From IMG/VR virus record IMGVR_UViG_3300017992_000015, positions 85,367 to 149,366 of that record: DNA of 64,000 bases, one strand, 5' to 3'. Both the position numbers and the translations under genes were made by a program. The stretch is from a virus (lineage: Duplodnaviria; Heunggongvirae; Uroviricota; Caudoviricetes). A model generated the notes under the pieces. The model searched no databases and was not told where the DNA came from. It worked only from the letters and a program-made list of their open reading frames with translations. Shown here piece after piece: positions 46,470 to 64,000 of the stretch (position 1 is its first letter; every line of letters starts with the position of its first letter).

Positions 46470-46477
46470 GCCTAATG

Positions 46478-46510
46478 AAAAAGGCGGCGGAGAAGGGGTC
46501 CTCCGCCGCC
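46478..46510 (-). terminator. Rho-independent terminator ending the head operon
   Basis: GGCGGCGGAG-8 nt-CTCCGCCGCC followed by TTTTT on the minus strand. Confidence 0.8.
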
Positions 46511-46541
46511 CTTTAAGCGCTATGCCTACTGCAAGCAGGGT

Positions 46542-46904
46542 CTAGCACGAGATCGCTTCCGAGCTGTAAGCGCCCCAGCACGGATCAGCGGCAGCAAAGC
46601 TGCCATTGTCCAGCGTGAGGATCTTGGTCTCGTCGAGCGTATCGTCGAACAGATGCACTGCCGGCGTGTTGACGACGACAAGGTAGTCGTTGTCCAACGC
46701 GTACTCCAGGGAGCGACGCTCTCGCTCATTCGGCGTAAACCGCGTGAGCCAGTGTTGAATGTCGCCCCAGACCGCAAGTTCTTCGCCACAGGCCATCCGC
46801 TTTCCGTGCGGAGGCAAGAAGCCGTAGAACTTCTCGGACGCAGCGATGTTGCGAACCGTACTGTAAAGACAGGCGGTCGCCGGATTGGCTTCATTGATGG
46901 CCAT
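46542..46904 (-). CDS. Hypothetical virion protein
   Basis: 120 aa, last gene of the head module. Confidence 0.65.
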   Translation of the reverse strand: MAINEANPATACLYSTVRNIAASEKFYGFLPPHGKRMACGEELAVWGDIQHWLTRFTPNERERRSLEYALDNDYLVVVNTPAVHLFDDTLDETKILTLDNGSFAAADPCWGAYSSEAISC

Positions 46905-46973
46905 TTGTCACATCCCTGTATATGCAAAGGGTTTGTTGGTAAAGGTCAAGCGACTCGGTGGTCGCCCCGGCTG

Positions 46974-47366
46974 CTACTCTGCGGCCGGTTGCTCGTCGGC
47001 AAGTTCGCCGCCCGACACGGTGTGCGCGTAAATCAGCGCAGCGTTTCGAGCGAGTTCACTCTCTCCGACGAGTTGGTCTGCGGACTGCTTGACGTAGTCG
47101 TCCACATTCGGAGCCGATTGCGGGGCGAAGCGTTGCAGCATGTCCGTCAAGAACGGGTTCTCGGCGGAAGCTTGCTTCACTTGGCCTTGCTGCGCAGCTT
47201 CGGCAAGCACGGCGCCGAGTTGAAGCAGCTGCTTCGCTTCTGCGTCGTTCCGAGGCTCCACACCGTGGGCTGCCAGCTTCTCGAAGAAAGCCGGAACGTG
47301 GATCCGGTCAAGCATATAGGACTGAGCCTGGAGGGCTTGGTCCTGAGTCGGAAGATTGGTACTCAT
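46974..47366 (-). CDS. Hypothetical head-module protein
   Basis: 130 aa, acidic, carries EKLA and VKQA motifs. Confidence 0.7.
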   Translation of the reverse strand: MSTNLPTQDQALQAQSYMLDRIHVPAFFEKLAAHGVEPRNDAEAKQLLQLGAVLAEAAQQGQVKQASAENPFLTDMLQRFAPQSAPNVDDYVKQSADQLVGESELARNAALIYAHTVSGGELADEQPAAE

Positions 47367-57441: not shown

Positions 57442-59814
57442 TTAGACCTCACCCTCGCCGAAGTCGACGTCGACTCCCTCGTCCGGGTAGGGCTCGATTG
57501 TTTTCTGCTTGAGTTCCAGGGTCACGTCACCCAGGCTCTCGAACGAGTTGCGCATGGCATCTTCCAGCTCGGGCAGATTGTTGCTGCCGTATCTGTCCTC
57601 AAATTTGTCGTGATGCCAGTACATGTTGAACAGCAGCCGGCCCATGCTGTCCAGACCCTTCATCAGGTCCGGCAGGTGCCGATCGATCAGAGTCTCGTTC
57701 TGCGAGCCCTTGAGCAGGTTCGACAGGAGCGAAGTGTCGAGCACTTCCTTCTGGCCTGTCTGGGCTGCTTCCATGAGTTGCTGCCCCATCATCGGCTCGG
57801 GCGGCTCGGCCATCTGCCCGCGCTGGCGGCGTCCGCCACGCAGGTCGTCGACCGGGTACTCCTCTTCCATGCCGTAGTTGGTCGGCAGGCCGGAGCCCAT
57901 GATGAAGTCGGTGGACTCGTACTGTTCCGGGATCGCCGGAGCCGACGGGGCGCTGGAGAGCAGATCGTACGGCTGGGCGTACTTGATCCGGTACTTCACG
58001 CCTCGCTGCAGCTGGGCGTTCTTCAACACGTCCTTAGCGGTCTTCTCGGCGCATCCGTAGTCGCGGACGAGCGAGATGAGCGCAGCCTTGGGCGTCGAGT
58101 GCCTGCCGTTGACGATCGCTTCGGTGCCGTTGTTGAAGACTTCCAGCGCGCTGGACGTCTTGTAGATGCCCAGCTGGAGGTCGACGTGGTCGCCTGGCAC
58201 AAGCGCGGGCGGGTCGCTCGAGTCCGCGCACGGGTTGCAGCACCCGGGGATGCTGTCGCCGTCCTCGTCCTTCGGCGGGTCGGCAATCTTCAGTGCCTTG
58301 GCGCCGGGCGGTACGAGCAGCTCGTCCAACCGCGACACGAGCTTGTGGCCCTTGATGCGGTTCAGCACAATCTGTTCGACGCTGCTGGTGTTGTCCCACT
58401 CGTAGTGGCCGTGGCTCGGCGACGGGATCAGCTTGTCGGCCCGACGCCGGACGTTACCGTAATGACGCCAGCGGACCTTGTACCGCTTTTCCTCGCCCTC
58501 GGAGGGCAGAGTGTCCTCGACCTCGAACACGCTCGTACCGTGTCCGGTCGTGGTGAGCAGCGCATAGGTCGCTCCGACCTGCAGGCTGTCCGCGTTCGGC
58601 AGTCCGTTGAACCAGTCGTTGTAGTCGCTACCGGAGTACTTCTCGATGACGTAGATGTCGCCGGGGTGCACTTCGGTATAGGCCTTCTTGTCGCCGCCGA
58701 CCCGTACCAGGACGCCGTTCGGCTTGCGGCCACGCGGGCCGTGCGGGGCGTGGATGTACAGGCACTTCTCGAAGGAGTCCGGCTTGCAGAGGACGTCGTA
58801 GTGTCCAGTCTCGTCCGGGTTCTGGAGCGTCATCGGCTCCTGGACCTTGTAGACCTTCGACTTGTCGTAGCGGTCGTCCTTGATGTAGACGCCGTCGCGT
58901 TGCAGTTGCTCGGCCTGCTTTTCGGTCAGCCCCCTGCGGCATGCTTTCGTGCCGTTGTATGTCCAAATGCGGAGGCTGCCAGTGTTGATCGGATCGGCTT
59001 CTTTCGCTTGGTCCATCGCGGACTTCTCGCGGAAGATGCTACCACCGACTTGGATGTCTCGTTTCTTGCGCGGCGGTTCCGTCGGACAGACGGTGCTGGC
59101 GGTCTTGGCAACGCCGATCGCTTCGTCGACAAGCTCCCGACCGTAGTTTTCGACGATCGGGCGAGCCAGCTGCGGCGTGGAGTCAAGGACCTGGAGGAAC
59201 CGCGTAGCGACCGCGGCACTGGCCTTGATCAGCTCCGGCGCTTTCGGCTCACGCTTAGCGACGCGACCGAGCGCGTGCATGAGGCCGGGCATACCGGCGT
59301 CGAGCCATTGATCCGACGCGTACTTGTTCGGTGATTCGCGGAACTGGTCGAGCGATGGGCGACTGACGCCGAGCATGCTCAGGTTGCGTGTGACCTCTTC
59401 GCCGATGACGTTCGGCTTGCGGTTCAGCACGTAGTTGACCCAGTTCTCTTTGAGGGGAACGAACGTGTCGCTCTCCTTGAGGTACATGAGCTCGTGCCCG
59501 CGGAGTTCGCCGTTCAGGAAGAACACCGGAGCATAAATGAGTTGCGGCCCCACCTTGAAGCCAAAGACACCGACAGCCCGATCGTTGTCCTCATTTTTCT
59601 CGAGAAGCTGGAAGCCCAGCATGAAGTCGAGCAGCTGTGGAGCCTTGTCTTTGAGGTAGGCGTGTGCCAAGTTGCTGAAGGCACTCTCGAAGCTCTGGCT
59701 GTCGCCGGATTCTCCACCCATGTCCGCCTGTTTGAGAAAGTCGGAGCGTTGGAGCGAGCGGCAGACACCGCGCCAGTAGCTTACCCCACCCATCTGTCGT
59801 AGGTTTGTACTCAT
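57442..59814 (-). CDS. Large head-module protein of unknown function
   Basis: 790 aa. An N-terminal leader ends DFLKQA, and further KxA motifs sit at compositional boundaries. Confidence 0.75.
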   Translation of the reverse strand: MSTNLRQMGGVSYWRGVCRSLQRSDFLKQADMGGESGDSQSFESAFSNLAHAYLKDKAPQLLDFMLGFQLLEKNEDNDRAVGVFGFKVGPQLIYAPVFFLNGELRGHELMYLKESDTFVPLKENWVNYVLNRKPNVIGEEVTRNLSMLGVSRPSLDQFRESPNKYASDQWLDAGMPGLMHALGRVAKREPKAPELIKASAAVATRFLQVLDSTPQLARPIVENYGRELVDEAIGVAKTASTVCPTEPPRKKRDIQVGGSIFREKSAMDQAKEADPINTGSLRIWTYNGTKACRRGLTEKQAEQLQRDGVYIKDDRYDKSKVYKVQEPMTLQNPDETGHYDVLCKPDSFEKCLYIHAPHGPRGRKPNGVLVRVGGDKKAYTEVHPGDIYVIEKYSGSDYNDWFNGLPNADSLQVGATYALLTTTGHGTSVFEVEDTLPSEGEEKRYKVRWRHYGNVRRRADKLIPSPSHGHYEWDNTSSVEQIVLNRIKGHKLVSRLDELLVPPGAKALKIADPPKDEDGDSIPGCCNPCADSSDPPALVPGDHVDLQLGIYKTSSALEVFNNGTEAIVNGRHSTPKAALISLVRDYGCAEKTAKDVLKNAQLQRGVKYRIKYAQPYDLLSSAPSAPAIPEQYESTDFIMGSGLPTNYGMEEEYPVDDLRGGRRQRGQMAEPPEPMMGQQLMEAAQTGQKEVLDTSLLSNLLKGSQNETLIDRHLPDLMKGLDSMGRLLFNMYWHHDKFEDRYGSNNLPELEDAMRNSFESLGDVTLELKQKTIEPYPDEGVDVDFGEGEV

Positions 59815-59904: not shown

Positions 59905-61791
59905 CTAGGTTTTTGGAGGCTTCAGTACGCTCTGAGGCCAGTTCTTGGCAAAATCTTCTCCGGCGGCCAGCGACGGTACGAAGCTGGTGCTCTTTGTGTC
60001 CGAGACGGCACCGCGATGGACCGCGGACATCAGGTTCTTCTTCTGATCACTTCCTAGGAAGCGGACGAGCGGGTCCGGGTCGTGTCCGACCGAAGCCTGC
60101 GCCCGGACCATGTACGGTCGAAAAGGCGGAGCTTCGTCGTGGACATCGATGTTCTTGACACCGAACTCGTCCAAAACTGGTAGCATTGACGGCTTAATCT
60201 GGGTGCCGACCGTGTAGTGCAGCACCGGGCTCTCCAGGTACTTGCCGACGCCCAGTTTGGGGGCTACGGAACGCATCCCGTCACGGGGTTGCCACCCGGC
60301 CTCGAGCTGCTGGTACGGGATCACATCGCCGGGGACGTGATCGTCGTCCTCGTCGGTCATCTCGACGTGGTCGATCAGGCTCCGAGACAGCAGTTCGATG
60401 TTCCTGCGATTGGCATACATCTTACCGGCACGGTACGCATCGGCAAAGATGTCGATGAAGTAGCGCCGACCCTCGCCGATGCCCTTGTGCTTGACGATTT
60501 CGGACGGATTCGGGATGCCGTCGCTGATCACGTCGCCGGCTTCGACGTTGTCGCCACGCTTCACCTTGAGGCCGAACCCGGGCAAAACGAAGTGCCGCTC
60601 GCCGCTGATGGTCACGTACTGGCCACCGGCGGGCGCTTCTGTGATATCGGTCACTTTTCCGTCCATTTGGGCGTGCGCAGCGCCACCTTTGAACGTTTTT
60701 GGCACCTGCACGAGCTGATTGACGTGCTGGAAGCCCGTCACGGACTGTGTTTCGCCCTTCACGCCGCCGGAGTGCTTCGAACTCAGGGCACCCTGTGTGA
60801 GCTTCTCAGAGAGCGCCTGTGCGGCTGCGATGCCAACCATGTCTCCAACCGGGGGCAGGTCTCCGCGCTCGCGTACGCCCACGTCACGGGCGTATACGCC
60901 GCTTGACGGGCCGGCGACCGTCGGAGAACGCACAAGGATGCGTTCCATGCCCTGATCGGCCAAATCTTCAAGGATTTTGGGCGTCAGAACTGTATTTCGC
61001 TTGTATCCGCCCATATCTGAGGCCAAAAGTGCCCCTTCGTTGTCCGGATCGTCGGTTTTGACCGGCAAACCACGCAAAACACGGCTCTTTTTGGCCGTTT
61101 TGTCCTCTTCAGCGTCGTCGGCGAGCACCATGAGCCGATGAGTGAGCTGATTCAGCTGTTTCGAGAAGTATCCGACGTCCATCGTGGCAAATTTCTCGTC
61201 GATGATGCCTTTCCGGGCTCCGTACGTGCCCGCCCAGTACGAAGCGGGGTCGAGACCCTCGCCGTAGCTCTGTTGCACCGGAAACGGGATCGTGTGGTCG
61301 TGGTGGTCGACGTAGAGCATGTCGCCGCCGATCAAACGCTTCAGGGTCATTTTGTTGCCTCGGGCACCCGATGCGACCTGGTCGGCGAGCGGGTTGCCCA
61401 GCTCTTTGGCGTCAGCGTACACGCCATCGAGCAGCTTCTCGTGCTCGGCGGCGGTCGCCTCGATGATCTTGGCTTCCTTCTTGTCCTCGTCCCAGTTGTC
61501 CTTCGACATGATCTCGCGGATGCGCCGGTTCAGGCGCTGGCGAGACGCCAGTACGGACTTGGTCGGACGCAGGTGCTCGATGCTGAACGACTGACCGCCG
61601 GTTGTATACGCCGCGTCACGGCCGACATCGGCGAGCTTCTTCGAGATCTCGCGGTACTTGTCCGGATCCTTCTCTGCGATCTCACGGAGCAACTTCTTGA
61701 CGCCCTTACCGTCCAAGGTGCGTGTGTAGTCACGCATCTCTTTCGGCAGGGCCTCGTTGACCAGCAGTTGTCCAATGGTCGTCTTAAGCAT
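59905..61791 (-). CDS. rpoC: Phage multisubunit RNA polymerase beta-prime, C-terminal half
   Basis: KTTIGQLL (TTVGR motif), ASGARG, SYGEGL...YGARKGIIDEKFATMDVGYFSKQL (bridge helix), VGIAAAQALSEKLTQGALSSKHSGG (trigger loop), VEAGDVISDG, NRRNIELL. Confidence 0.93.
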   Translation of the reverse strand: MLKTTIGQLLVNEALPKEMRDYTRTLDGKGVKKLLREIAEKDPDKYREISKKLADVGRDAAYTTGGQSFSIEHLRPTKSVLASRQRLNRRIREIMSKDNWDEDKKEAKIIEATAAEHEKLLDGVYADAKELGNPLADQVASGARGNKMTLKRLIGGDMLYVDHHDHTIPFPVQQSYGEGLDPASYWAGTYGARKGIIDEKFATMDVGYFSKQLNQLTHRLMVLADDAEEDKTAKKSRVLRGLPVKTDDPDNEGALLASDMGGYKRNTVLTPKILEDLADQGMERILVRSPTVAGPSSGVYARDVGVRERGDLPPVGDMVGIAAAQALSEKLTQGALSSKHSGGVKGETQSVTGFQHVNQLVQVPKTFKGGAAHAQMDGKVTDITEAPAGGQYVTISGERHFVLPGFGLKVKRGDNVEAGDVISDGIPNPSEIVKHKGIGEGRRYFIDIFADAYRAGKMYANRRNIELLSRSLIDHVEMTDEDDDHVPGDVIPYQQLEAGWQPRDGMRSVAPKLGVGKYLESPVLHYTVGTQIKPSMLPVLDEFGVKNIDVHDEAPPFRPYMVRAQASVGHDPDPLVRFLGSDQKKNLMSAVHRGAVSDTKSTSFVPSLAAGEDFAKNWPQSVLKPPKT

Positions 61792-62071
61792 GCGGAGGAT
61801 CCTCGCCAGGCTTCCAGAGGCGGCTGCCCTTAGGCGGCGCCGCGAAGGAATCCTTGTCGATATGATCGCTGATGACGGTCTCGTTGATGCCCAACTGAGA
61901 GAGCATCTTGTTCATGACCTCGTCGCCGTCGCCGCGATCGATGATGTACTGGTGCCCTGGAGTCGGTTCCAGGGCCACAGCAATGACGCCGTTGATTGGG
62001 CACCGCAGTACAACGCGAGTCGCTTCGATGCGCTGCGGATTGCCCAACTTGTTGTGGAGTTCAACAATCAT
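61784..62071 (-). CDS. Hypothetical protein between the RNAP halves
   Basis: 95 aa, AGG RBS, overlaps the start of the beta-prime C-half by 8 nt. Confidence 0.65.
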   Translation of the reverse strand: MIVELHNKLGNPQRIEATRVVLRCPINGVIAVALEPTPGHQYIIDRGDGDEVMNKMLSQLGINETVISDHIDKDSFAAPPKGSRLWKPGEDPPHA

Positions 62072-62073
62072 GA

Positions 62074-62760
62074 TTACCTACGGTGCAGGCTTCGGGACAT
62101 GGCGGAGATCGCATCGAGCCGCAACTGCGACGCGTCCTCTCGCTCCCCGTCGACTGGACCGCGGAACATCGACAACGCATCGGCTCCTGCTTTCTCAGGC
62201 CCGGACGGGGCTTCAATCGGGCTGACGGGCGCGTTCCCGCCGATACCCGGCAACGCCGGTCCGCCGCCGCCACCCTCGGGCGGGGCACCTTCGGCGCCGG
62301 CTCCGAGCGGCGCGCTCTGCGGCATCTGGCCTTGAGCGACCATCGCCACAGCACCGTCGTCCAGAATGTCGGGAGGCATGTCGATGCCCGTGTGCTTCAT
62401 CATGTGGGTCAAGAGCTTCCGAACGCGGGAGAGCTCCATGTAGATGAAGGTAGGATCGATCTTGGGCTTTCCACCGGCTCCTGGGGCTCCACCAGCTGCA
62501 GGCGCAGGGGCAGCGGCTGGCGGTGCTCCCGCCATTGCAGCCGGGTCCATCGGCGGGGCGGCTCCTGCCATCGCCGGGTCCATCGGCGGTGCTCCGCCTC
62601 CTGCCATCGGATCCATCGGCGGAGCTCCTCCGGGCGGCATCGCTCCCGGCGGCATTCCGCCCGCCGCCGGATCACCTGGTACGAAAGCCTTTTTCTCGTT
62701 CTCACCGGCCAACCTCCATTCGGCAAGATCGAAAAGCATCGGGTTCATTTCGTGGGACAT
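62074..62760 (-). CDS. Low-complexity Gly/Pro/Ala/Met protein between the RNAP halves
   Basis: Leader ending ENEKKA, followed by GGMPP and PPMDP(A)MAG tandem repeats. Confidence 0.7.
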   Translation of the reverse strand: MSHEMNPMLFDLAEWRLAGENEKKAFVPGDPAAGGMPPGAMPPGGAPPMDPMAGGGAPPMDPAMAGAAPPMDPAAMAGAPPAAAPAPAAGGAPGAGGKPKIDPTFIYMELSRVRKLLTHMMKHTGIDMPPDILDDGAVAMVAQGQMPQSAPLGAGAEGAPPEGGGGGPALPGIGGNAPVSPIEAPSGPEKAGADALSMFRGPVDGEREDASQLRLDAISAMSRSLHRR

Positions 62761-62874
62761 TAGTGCGACTCCGTTCGTTGTTCATGTGACACTACTAGTA
62801 GCTTACAGGGGTTGCGTTGATTCTACAATCCAAAACGACGACGCAGTCGTCGCGCGAATTTTTTGCTAGTGTTG

Positions 62875-64000
62875 CTAGCGTCCTTCGCGAATCTCGATTC
62901 GTTGACCTACGCCAATCTCTCCGCGCTTGTAAGCCTTGATCGCGTCGAGCTTCGAGTTGAAGACTCGGACGGGCTTCTTCTTGTCGTTCCGCGTCGTCGC
63001 CTCCCACAATCCACCGACGTACTCCATCGACGGGGCGTGGATGACTTCGAAGTCGCTGACCGCGAACAGGTTCTTCGACGGCAGGAGTTTCTCCTGCGCC
63101 TCCTGCACGGCTTCGTCGGTCGACGGCAGGTGAAACTGCATGGCGTCGCCGTCAAAGTCGGCATTGAAGCCTTTCACGATCAGTGGCGGAATCTGCAAGG
63201 TGTTTGCGGACGTGAGTTGTGGCCAGAACGCCATGACCCCGAACCGGTGCAACACCGGGGCTCGGTTGATCACGACAGGACGGGATTTCATCTCGGATTG
63301 CAGCTCACGCATAGCTGTATCGGTACGGTCTTTGACGGCCTCCATCGCCTTGATCTTGCTCATGCCGCGGCGGACCAGTCGACGGACGACGAACGGCTGA
63401 TACAGCGTCCACGCCTTGTCGGCCGGGATTCCTACCTGGTCCATGTCGAGGTTGGGATCTGGCGAAATAGCAGCACGGCCCACGAGATCCACGGTGGACC
63501 CGAGAAGCTTGCGCTGCACGGTGCCGAACTTCGGGCTGGTCCCGAAGACGTGCTTCAGGATGCCCTTGACCGGTTGTGATTTGTTCTCTGGGCGAATGGG
63601 ATCGCCAAGGCCTGTGACACCCTTGAAGGCGTCGTAGACCGCTAGCCGCTCGTCGGACACGTCATCCGTCATGCGGGTGAGTTGTTTCAGGTTGTCGTTC
63701 GCGTCGAACAGCTCCTTGTAGAGGAAGTTCGCGTCGTCGACGAGCCGGCCACCGGACCCCATCATGGAGACCGGGCGGAACATCGGCGGCAGCACCGGGA
63801 CTCGATCCATCATCCAGTCCTTCGGGTGCTGCCCGAGCTTCTTCGCTGACTTGAGGAACTGCAGTCGACGGATCGCCTTGTCGCGGTAGGTCTTCTTACC
63901 GCTGCTCATCTCGGCGCGGGCTCGCTCGATCTCCTTGTCGAGGTTGATGTCCTCGAGCACTTTGGCGAGCCCCTTGGGGCCAGTGAGTCCTTCGCGCCCT
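62875..64000 (-). CDS. rpoC: Phage multisubunit RNA polymerase beta-prime, N-terminal (catalytic) half; 5'-truncated by the window edge
   Basis: VPVLPPMFRP, GRAAISPDP, VINRAPVLHR, catalytic NADFDGD at 63145-63165. The frame stays open to position 64000. Confidence 0.96.
   Translation of the reverse strand, partial: GREGLTGPKGLAKVLEDINLDKEIERARAEMSSGKKTYRDKAIRRLQFLKSAKKLGQHPKDWMMDRVPVLPPMFRPVSMMGSGGRLVDDANFLYKELFDANDNLKQLTRMTDDVSDERLAVYDAFKGVTGLGDPIRPENKSQPVKGILKHVFGTSPKFGTVQRKLLGSTVDLVGRAAISPDPNLDMDQVGIPADKAWTLYQPFVVRRLVRRGMSKIKAMEAVKDRTDTAMRELQSEMKSRPVVINRAPVLHRFGVMAFWPQLTSANTLQIPPLIVKGFNADFDGDAMQFHLPSTDEAVQEAQEKLLPSKNLFAVSDFEVIHAPSMEYVGGLWEATTRNDKKKPVRVFNSKLDAIKAYKRGEIGVGQRIEIREGR

Follow-up and report, generated by a model that had tools for sequence, protein, structure and literature searches.

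Natural rpoB-rpoC fusions exist in Helicobacter and Wolbachia as full-length, unsplit cellular enzymes that have alpha and omega subunits. In cyanobacteria and plastids, beta-prime is divided soon after the double-psi barrel into RpoC1 (gamma) and RpoC2, and the chains reassemble; these enzymes have alpha and omega subunits, and their gamma is separate from beta. Among phages, the phiKZ/AR9-type enzymes consist of beta and beta-prime homologs without alpha or omega, with one set packaged in the virion. In these enzymes the beta-prime split follows the barrel (review PMC7598289), beta is split too, and there are two paralogous sets with no sigma factor. The uncultured tailed phages of the mReC lineage encode recognizably cellular-type beta and beta-prime branching outside bacteria (PMC7481178), listed in the tables of that study as separate beta (~1000-1412 residues) and unsplit beta-prime (~902-1301 residues) (Weinheimer and Aylward 2020, PMC7481178); fusion is mentioned in its text for crAssphage only (PMC7481178). 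The crAss-like gp66 and P23-45 tape-measure-fused virion RNA polymerases (RNAPs) are described as single-chain, two-barrel, virion-delivered enzymes. For Salmonella phage Arash, the proteins were named plainly beta and beta-prime, and neither a fusion nor a split was described (OQ632216; Yousefi et al. 2023, PMC10585845). Here we describe the RNAP locus of a large, uncultured tailed phage. One of its genes joins almost the whole of beta to the first ~40% of beta-prime (beta-prime-N, reaching about E. coli residue 554), the remainder of beta-prime (beta-prime-C, or C-half) being encoded by a second gene. The locus lies at the end of a 64,000-nucleotide stretch (the window), bases 85367-149366 of one linear IMG/VR viral contig of 161,817 bp (~75% complete according to CheckV).

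An initial annotation, made from the letters of the window, had reported a beta-prime in two genes, the first ending in GQRIEIREGR and the second starting with MLKTTIGQLL, with two genes between them. The list of open reading frames (ORFs) and Pfam confirmed this arrangement. The end of the window, however, concealed the main point: the presumed catalytic half is the tail of an ORF with nearly all of beta fused to it. Within the window this ORF is open at the window end and stops at 62875, with the C-terminus ...GEIGVGQRIEIREGR (ORF list); the gene runs on to genome position 152614 (window-equivalent 67248), thus occupying 148241-152614 of the genome. We refer to the 1457-residue fusion ORF as P0001, to the 628-residue C-half as P0002, and to the genes between them as X and Y. 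The polymerase features are:

62875..64000, minus strand: 3' end (last 374 codons) of the beta::beta-prime-N fusion gene (ORF list, Pfam, blastp)
63145..63165, minus strand: catalytic NADFDGD motif, P0001 residues 1362-1368 (alignment to bacterial beta-prime)
59905..61791, minus strand: beta-prime C-half gene P0002, 628 residues, start MLKTTIGQLLVNEALP (ORF list, Pfam, alignment)

The window-cut ORF matched RNA_pol_Rpb1_2 (E 7.6e-28, spanning NADFDGD) and also Rpb1_1 in Pfam. With the full P0001 we obtained Rpb2_6 (E 1.6e-54), Rpb1_2 (2.3e-26) and Rpb2_3 (30.3 bits against a cut-off of 21), Rpb1_1 falling under its cut-off (29 versus 39.7 bits). In blastp, P0001 residues 97-982 correspond to E. 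coli beta 117-1336 of 1342, and residues 1066-1454 to beta-prime 150-551; in the ~80 residues joining the two aligned parts, the beta-prime N-terminus is recognizable (GGLFDES...) and the zinc ribbon is deleted. The beta Lys motif of P0001, GDKFSGRYGDKG, agrees with E. coli GDKMAGRHGNKG. P0002 carries Rpb1_5 (Pfam, E 1.6e-20) and displays the TTxG motif (TTIG, residues 4-7), a bridge helix with GARKG at position 191, and a trigger loop with AAAQALSE at 322, KHSGG at ~339 and its histidine kept. As had been stated from the motifs, both parts are closer to bacterial RpoC than to phiKZ-type enzymes: phmmer against PDB retrieved bacterial beta-prime at E 5e-57 for the N part and E 8e-37 for the C part, whereas phage AR9 gave a weak match (tblastn E 3e-6). 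The whole contig has one Rpb1_2 locus only. Since all catalytic elements are intact, we take the two predicted products to form an active polymerase core.

We are fairly confident that the two genes specify the catalytic core of a two-chain RNAP of bacterial type that belongs to the phage, and that their layout arose by a fusion followed by a single fission. Chain 1 (1457 residues) would comprise nearly all of beta, a short linker, and beta-prime to the end of the catalytic double-psi barrel region; chain 2 (628 residues) would supply the rest of beta-prime, that is, the bridge helix, the trigger loop and the C-terminal clamp/jaw parts. By analogy with cyanobacterial gamma and beta-prime, the two chains would reassemble noncovalently. 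This partition of the catalytic barrels would differ from the few fixed ways known in cells. It also differs from that of mReC phages, whose separate full-length genes contrast with the 1457 plus 628 residues found here. This phage had been proposed as a probable member or neighbor of the lineage of Weinheimer and Aylward; membership is not borne out by this architecture. With respect to the far more divergent phiKZ/AR9-type enzymes, this phage has a single set, with beta whole and fused, and a sigma factor.

The same two-gene layout was found by tblastn in four cultured phages: Salmonella phage Arash and Vibrio phages D69, D148 and D181. Arash carries gp206 (1525 residues) and gp216 (606 residues) with nine genes between them, and D69 carries 0261 and 0264 with two small genes between them. 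All four share with our phage the two-chain layout, the break point and the tree clade, and have a sigma70-type factor in the genome, although their identity to it is only ~32% for the fusion and 24-28% for the C-half. In a large protein database, the C-half had over 2900 relatives of near its length. Among the best 150 clusters (50%-identity representatives), all ungapped matches begin within a few residues of the query start; the remaining matches are either cut or contain inteins that interrupt them near residues 200 and 336. We also considered long C-half relatives (1100-2500 residues) as candidates for an unsplit beta-prime, and rejected them: 0 of the 120 listed has Rpb1_2, and they share the same start residue, their length coming with C-terminal extensions, NUDIX fusions or inteins. 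Three assembly contexts showed a beta::beta-prime-N ORF of 1456-1490 residues upstream of the C-half.

A scan of IMG/VR with the single sequence of P0002 gave no match; an alignment-based scan recovered the loci. We surveyed the layout in 80 IMG/VR loci from this search plus the 3 assembly loci, scored by script. A locus was considered informative when both beta-prime parts were visible (74 loci), and these were distributed as follows:

Fusion plus C-half, complete: 52 of 74
Fusion plus C-half, with beta truncated where the contig stops: 2 of 74
One continuous ORF of 2016-2500 residues with beta and all of beta-prime: 8 of 74
No beta in the locus, with beta-prime-N alone (L061, L070, L079, L080) or cut by the contig end: 7 of 74
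Beta broken or unfused: 5 of 74

The break is therefore the hallmark of a large clade (54 of the 74 informative loci) and not, as had been supposed, an event of this phage. It is conserved across relatives at 24% to 76% identity, and split C-halves, including the one of this phage, begin 3-6 residues ahead of the same conserved Gly of TTxG. The gap between the polymerase genes measures 0.6-5.9 kilobases (kb) in fused-and-split loci, and up to ~9.6 kb where beta-prime-N stands alone. The initial annotation had named, as a finding that would count against it, a split already documented across this phage group. The split is indeed shared across the group, but we found no description of it in literature searches, in the Arash paper, in the review PMC7598289 or in the overview of Iyer et al. 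A large, barely studied environmental phage clade uses this layout, which searches based on full-length COG0085/COG0086 matches miss or mislabel.

The break falls in a surface hairpin (E. coli beta-prime ~555-568) that is variable among bacteria. On E. coli beta-prime, residue 551 is the counterpart of P0001 residue 1454, and residue 572, the first T of TTVGR, that of position 4 of the C-half profile (P0002 residue 4). In the alignment, large insertions are present at this hairpin in Truepera and in the phage relative L062. The single-chain relatives in this alignment are continuous across the break, L060, L063 and L090 having only 3-4 residues there (...IKIGP-RETTMGW). Each new end, that of the N-half and that of the C-half, lies 3 residues from a position aligned to contiguous bacterial and single-chain sequence. 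No residues are lost at the break. The precision of these ends makes it extremely improbable that a split intein rejoins the two parts by protein trans-splicing to yield a mature single chain. Contiguous inteins (Hint / LAGLIDADG) are indeed common in the beta-prime-C and beta genes of relatives, but neither new terminus has extra residues and there is therefore no room for intein halves; moreover, gp206 and gp216 of Arash were identified as separate proteins.

The split had been placed just ahead of TTxG, near the cyanobacterial site but distinct from it, and this is confirmed by the mapping of cyanobacterial RpoC2 chains on the C-half profile. Residue 1 of RpoC2 falls at about profile position 12-19 (8gzg_Z 7-427 on 19-422; 8syi_Z 12 on 23; 8h3v_B 5 on 23). 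The cyanobacterial break thus lies 11-18 aligned residues downstream of the phage break, on the other side of TTxGR. By the same mapping, and as had been stated for cyanobacterial RpoC1, this motif stays on gamma, whereas in the phage TTIG forms residues 4-7 of the C-half. An estimate of ~65 residues downstream, based on the length of gamma, proved wrong, the difference being mostly due to a longer hairpin in gamma.

To place these enzymes, trees were built from concatenated beta and beta-prime with IQ-TREE (LG+C20 with posterior mean site frequencies, PMSF) in two versions, a quick one of 46 rows and a careful one of 29 rows and 1936 columns. The outgroup was bacterial and rich in Patescibacteria. 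In the careful tree, a long branch separates the sampled bacteria from the phage enzymes, which fall together in a single clade (100/100). Within it, the split forms constitute a single clade (ultrafast bootstrap, UFBoot, 100; SH-like approximate likelihood ratio test, SH-aLRT, 99), monophyletic in 100% of bootstrap trees, and the single-chain forms a basal grade around it, monophyletic in 3% of bootstrap trees only. The quick tree agrees with the careful one, and in both this phage groups with Arash and D69, excluding bacteria and single-chain forms.

The sequences thus do not nest inside any of the bacterial groups sampled, as a recent host capture would. We also scanned prokaryotic genomes, each species being represented by one: the top matches were phage contigs mis-binned into metagenome-assembled genomes (41-54% identity), and the nearest genuine bacterial rpoC products were only 24-30% identical. 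A host rpoB-rpoC pair recently captured and now decaying in the phage, with the split as a pseudogenizing disruption, would be in line with the clearly bacterial-type motifs and with the mobile endonuclease genes and inteins that invade these genes in relatives. We nevertheless regard it as highly unlikely, given this low identity and the separate clade: both ORFs are intact with every catalytic motif present, the same break is kept from 24% to 76% identity, and both products are abundant in Arash preparations.

Since the split clade is nested among single-chain forms, and bacterial genes are unfused and unsplit, the most economical reading is one beta/beta-prime fusion in the phage ancestor, and then one fission within beta-prime. 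The tree and the survey indicate that the ancestral phage gene already carried beta and beta-prime as a single chain, that the split clade (this phage, Arash and the Vibrio D69 group) came from a single subsequent fission in which the break received inserted genes, and that further breaks arose in sublineages. If so, the history is directly readable, from the beta/beta-prime fusion through one fission at a new site to the additional sublineage breaks. A repeated, independent origin of the split at a fragile hairpin seems improbable to us, although not to the same degree as host capture or trans-splicing. The hairpin is an insertion hot-spot (L062, Truepera), cyanobacteria and, according to review PMC7598289, phiKZ-type phages are split nearby, and other breaks did arise repeatedly in this family; but the sampled split forms make up one clade (100/99; 100% of bootstrap trees), and they begin 3-6 residues from the same conserved Gly. 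As for the mechanism of the single fission, D148 and D181 have a homing endonuclease within the gene. An insertion-driven fission is plausible, because mobile elements are frequent in these genes.

We searched the contig, itself ~75% complete, for alpha (PF01000) and omega (PF01192) and obtained no match. The covalent link of beta to beta-prime may substitute for the alpha2 assembly platform, and the enzyme would work with the phage's own sigma70-type factor. The genes that bear on its function are:

L004:1060-1899 (genome ~46476-47315), minus strand: sigma70-family factor, 280 residues, regions 2 and 4 (phrog_351, E 8e-34)
57442..59814, minus strand: conserved downstream gene, 790 residues (position after beta-prime-C kept in relatives L008-L010)

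The sigma70-family protein is likely a specificity subunit, for the phage polymerase or for the host RNAP. In the proteomics of purified Arash virions, gp206 was the protein with the largest number of spectra and gp216 ranked fifth, and the sigma factor gp10 was detected (PMC10585845); gp218 was also detected by virion mass spectrometry and re-annotated as a structural protein (PMC10585845). The 790-residue protein of our phage is weakly similar to gp218 and to its D69 counterpart; Atlas neighbors gave nothing for it. The fusion gene comes after the portal gene in Arash and after a portal-sized gene in D69. In this phage, the locus has unannotated neighbors, syntenic with relatives, including the gp218 homolog.

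We lean towards an enzyme that is at least partly packaged in the virion, where it would serve early, host-independent transcription. Somewhat doubtful, although a serious competitor, is the view that the polymerase is no virion component but is produced once infection has begun, to transcribe middle or late genes together with the phage sigma; its presence in Arash particle preparations would then be carry-over. The Arash authors themselves raised this possibility, and the phage does have a host-like sigma70-family factor. It accounts less well for the position of the genes among structural genes in the relatives checked (in Arash, the portal adjoining and a conserved virion-detected protein after) and for gp206 having the top spectral count of all Arash proteins.

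Several points weigh against our overall interpretation. The limited, Patescibacteria-biased outgroup (no archaea, mReC or phiKZ-type) carries the root of the phage clade, and many tree rows fail the composition test. No cysteine is present in P0001 985-1457 or in P0002, so both zinc sites of beta-prime are lost, the second Cys4 site being replaced; in this the subclade of our phage differs from Arash and D69, which keep the Cys4 site of beta-prime and retain the C-x6-C-x2-C and DC residues in the alignment. The two-chain assembly is deduced from homology, and given the ~75% completeness of the contig the absence of alpha and omega is not proven. Finally, the Arash authors warn that abundant infection-phase proteins may contaminate virion preparations (PMC10585845).

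A more tentative reading, which we hold to be less likely than not, is that this abundant clade packages and injects a complete, bacterial-type, sigma-dependent holoenzyme, for which alpha and omega would be unneeded as the covalent link replaces the alpha2 platform, and that X and Y might supply clade-specific assembly or packaging factors. If true, it would add a third, independent type to the injected phage RNAPs and would serve as a natural minimal model for how bacterial RNAP assembles. The family would offer a natural experiment on which covalent links are needed for RNAP assembly without alpha and omega, with Arash and Vibrio D69 as tractable models for a sigma-using polymerase that may be injected.

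Between the two polymerase genes, the window contains:

62835..62853, minus strand: terminator-like hairpin GCGACGAC-TGC-GTCGTCGT followed by TTTGGATTGT (consensus scan only; 21 nucleotides past the fusion-gene stop)
62074..62760, minus strand: gene X, 228 residues, Pro/Ala/Gly-rich, predicted disordered, with conserved termini (ORF list, relatives)
61784..62071, minus strand: gene Y, 95 residues, five strands and one helix (ORF list, AlphaFold model)

The putative hairpin, which has a T-run, suggests that the two polymerase genes may belong to separate or attenuated transcription units. A GGAG lies 9 nucleotides ahead of the ATG of X, Y starts 2 nucleotides after X, and the ATG of the C-half is inside the end of Y, with an overlap of 8 nucleotides (ATGCTTAA). 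From this spacing and overlap, close coupling of X, Y and beta-prime-C as one unit seems likely. X and Y, neither of which has a Pfam or PHROG match, had been called unrelated genes. They are a cassette conserved in related loci, of ~230 and ~80 residues respectively: X-like (196-341 residues) and Y-like (68-102 residues) families are each present in the loci of 37 relatives (38 with this window). They are usually the sole genes of a gap of ~0.9-1.0 kb in this subclade, and in most X/Y loci (L009-L069 gaps) Y overlaps or abuts the start of beta-prime-C. X and Y are thus conserved companions in this subclade, not random inserts. The gap genes of Arash (nine) and D69 (two small) are unrelated to them. 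The gap of the Arash subclade holds two other families, gp212-like and gp213-like, and hhalign detected no homology between X or Y and these gp213 and gp212 families. The AlphaFold model of Y (pLDDT, predicted local distance difference test, 76) had no significant fold match in PDB (best E 0.3, Sso7d-like). A complex prediction of Y with the beta-prime C-half scored 0.00, which counts neither for nor against contact. Atlas neighbors included none informative for X.

Other observations concern the relatives. A three-gene sublineage (L070; also L061, L079, L080, L052 and L066), 50-53% identical to Arash, has beta-prime-N alone in ~390 residues and beta-prime-C 7-9 kb further on; in L070 (G001, a complete 181-kb genome with terminal repeats), these are three genes with beta alone in a 1136-residue frame. 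Beta is broken near residue 915 in L014 and L049, and near residue 517 in L078. Inteins (Hint, Hom_end_hint, LAGLIDADG_3) recur in C-half relatives at ~200-209 and 326-337 (e.g., P0014, P0122, P0131, P0222), and many C-half relatives have C-terminal extensions of 500-1400 residues, some with NUDIX fusions. The single-chain forms (L059-L090) are plainly bacterial-type, in contrast with the extremely divergent crAss-like gp66 and P23-45 enzymes, which have no recognizable beta or beta-prime Pfam domains. Contigs with this polymerase (L091-L099) were binned into metagenome-assembled genomes (MAGs) labeled Gemmataceae, Planctomycetales, Pacearchaeota, Clostridia and others; the planctomycete labels are weak evidence on the host. 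In L110 (a Candidatus Paceibacterota MAG, DATMBM010000004.1), rpoB and rpoC matches occur in one open frame of at least 2313 residues, possibly a cellular beta to beta-prime fusion in a bacterium of the Candidate Phyla Radiation. L110 and the Helicobacter and Wolbachia fusions resemble the phage gene in that the C-terminus of beta runs straight into the N-terminus of beta-prime.

Two endonuclease genes lie near the polymerase genes, one in a relative and one in this phage. In L008, a relative with 72% identity, a 54-residue Endonuclease_7 (PF02945) ORF lies at L008:8844-9008 (plus strand), immediately past the fusion-gene stop, and is possibly the remnant of a homing endonuclease in the break. 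The gene in this phage is:

L001:11793-12293 (genome 154789-155292), minus strand: gene for an endonuclease of the staphylococcal nuclease type (PF00565; phrog_452), upstream of the fusion gene by ~2.2 kb

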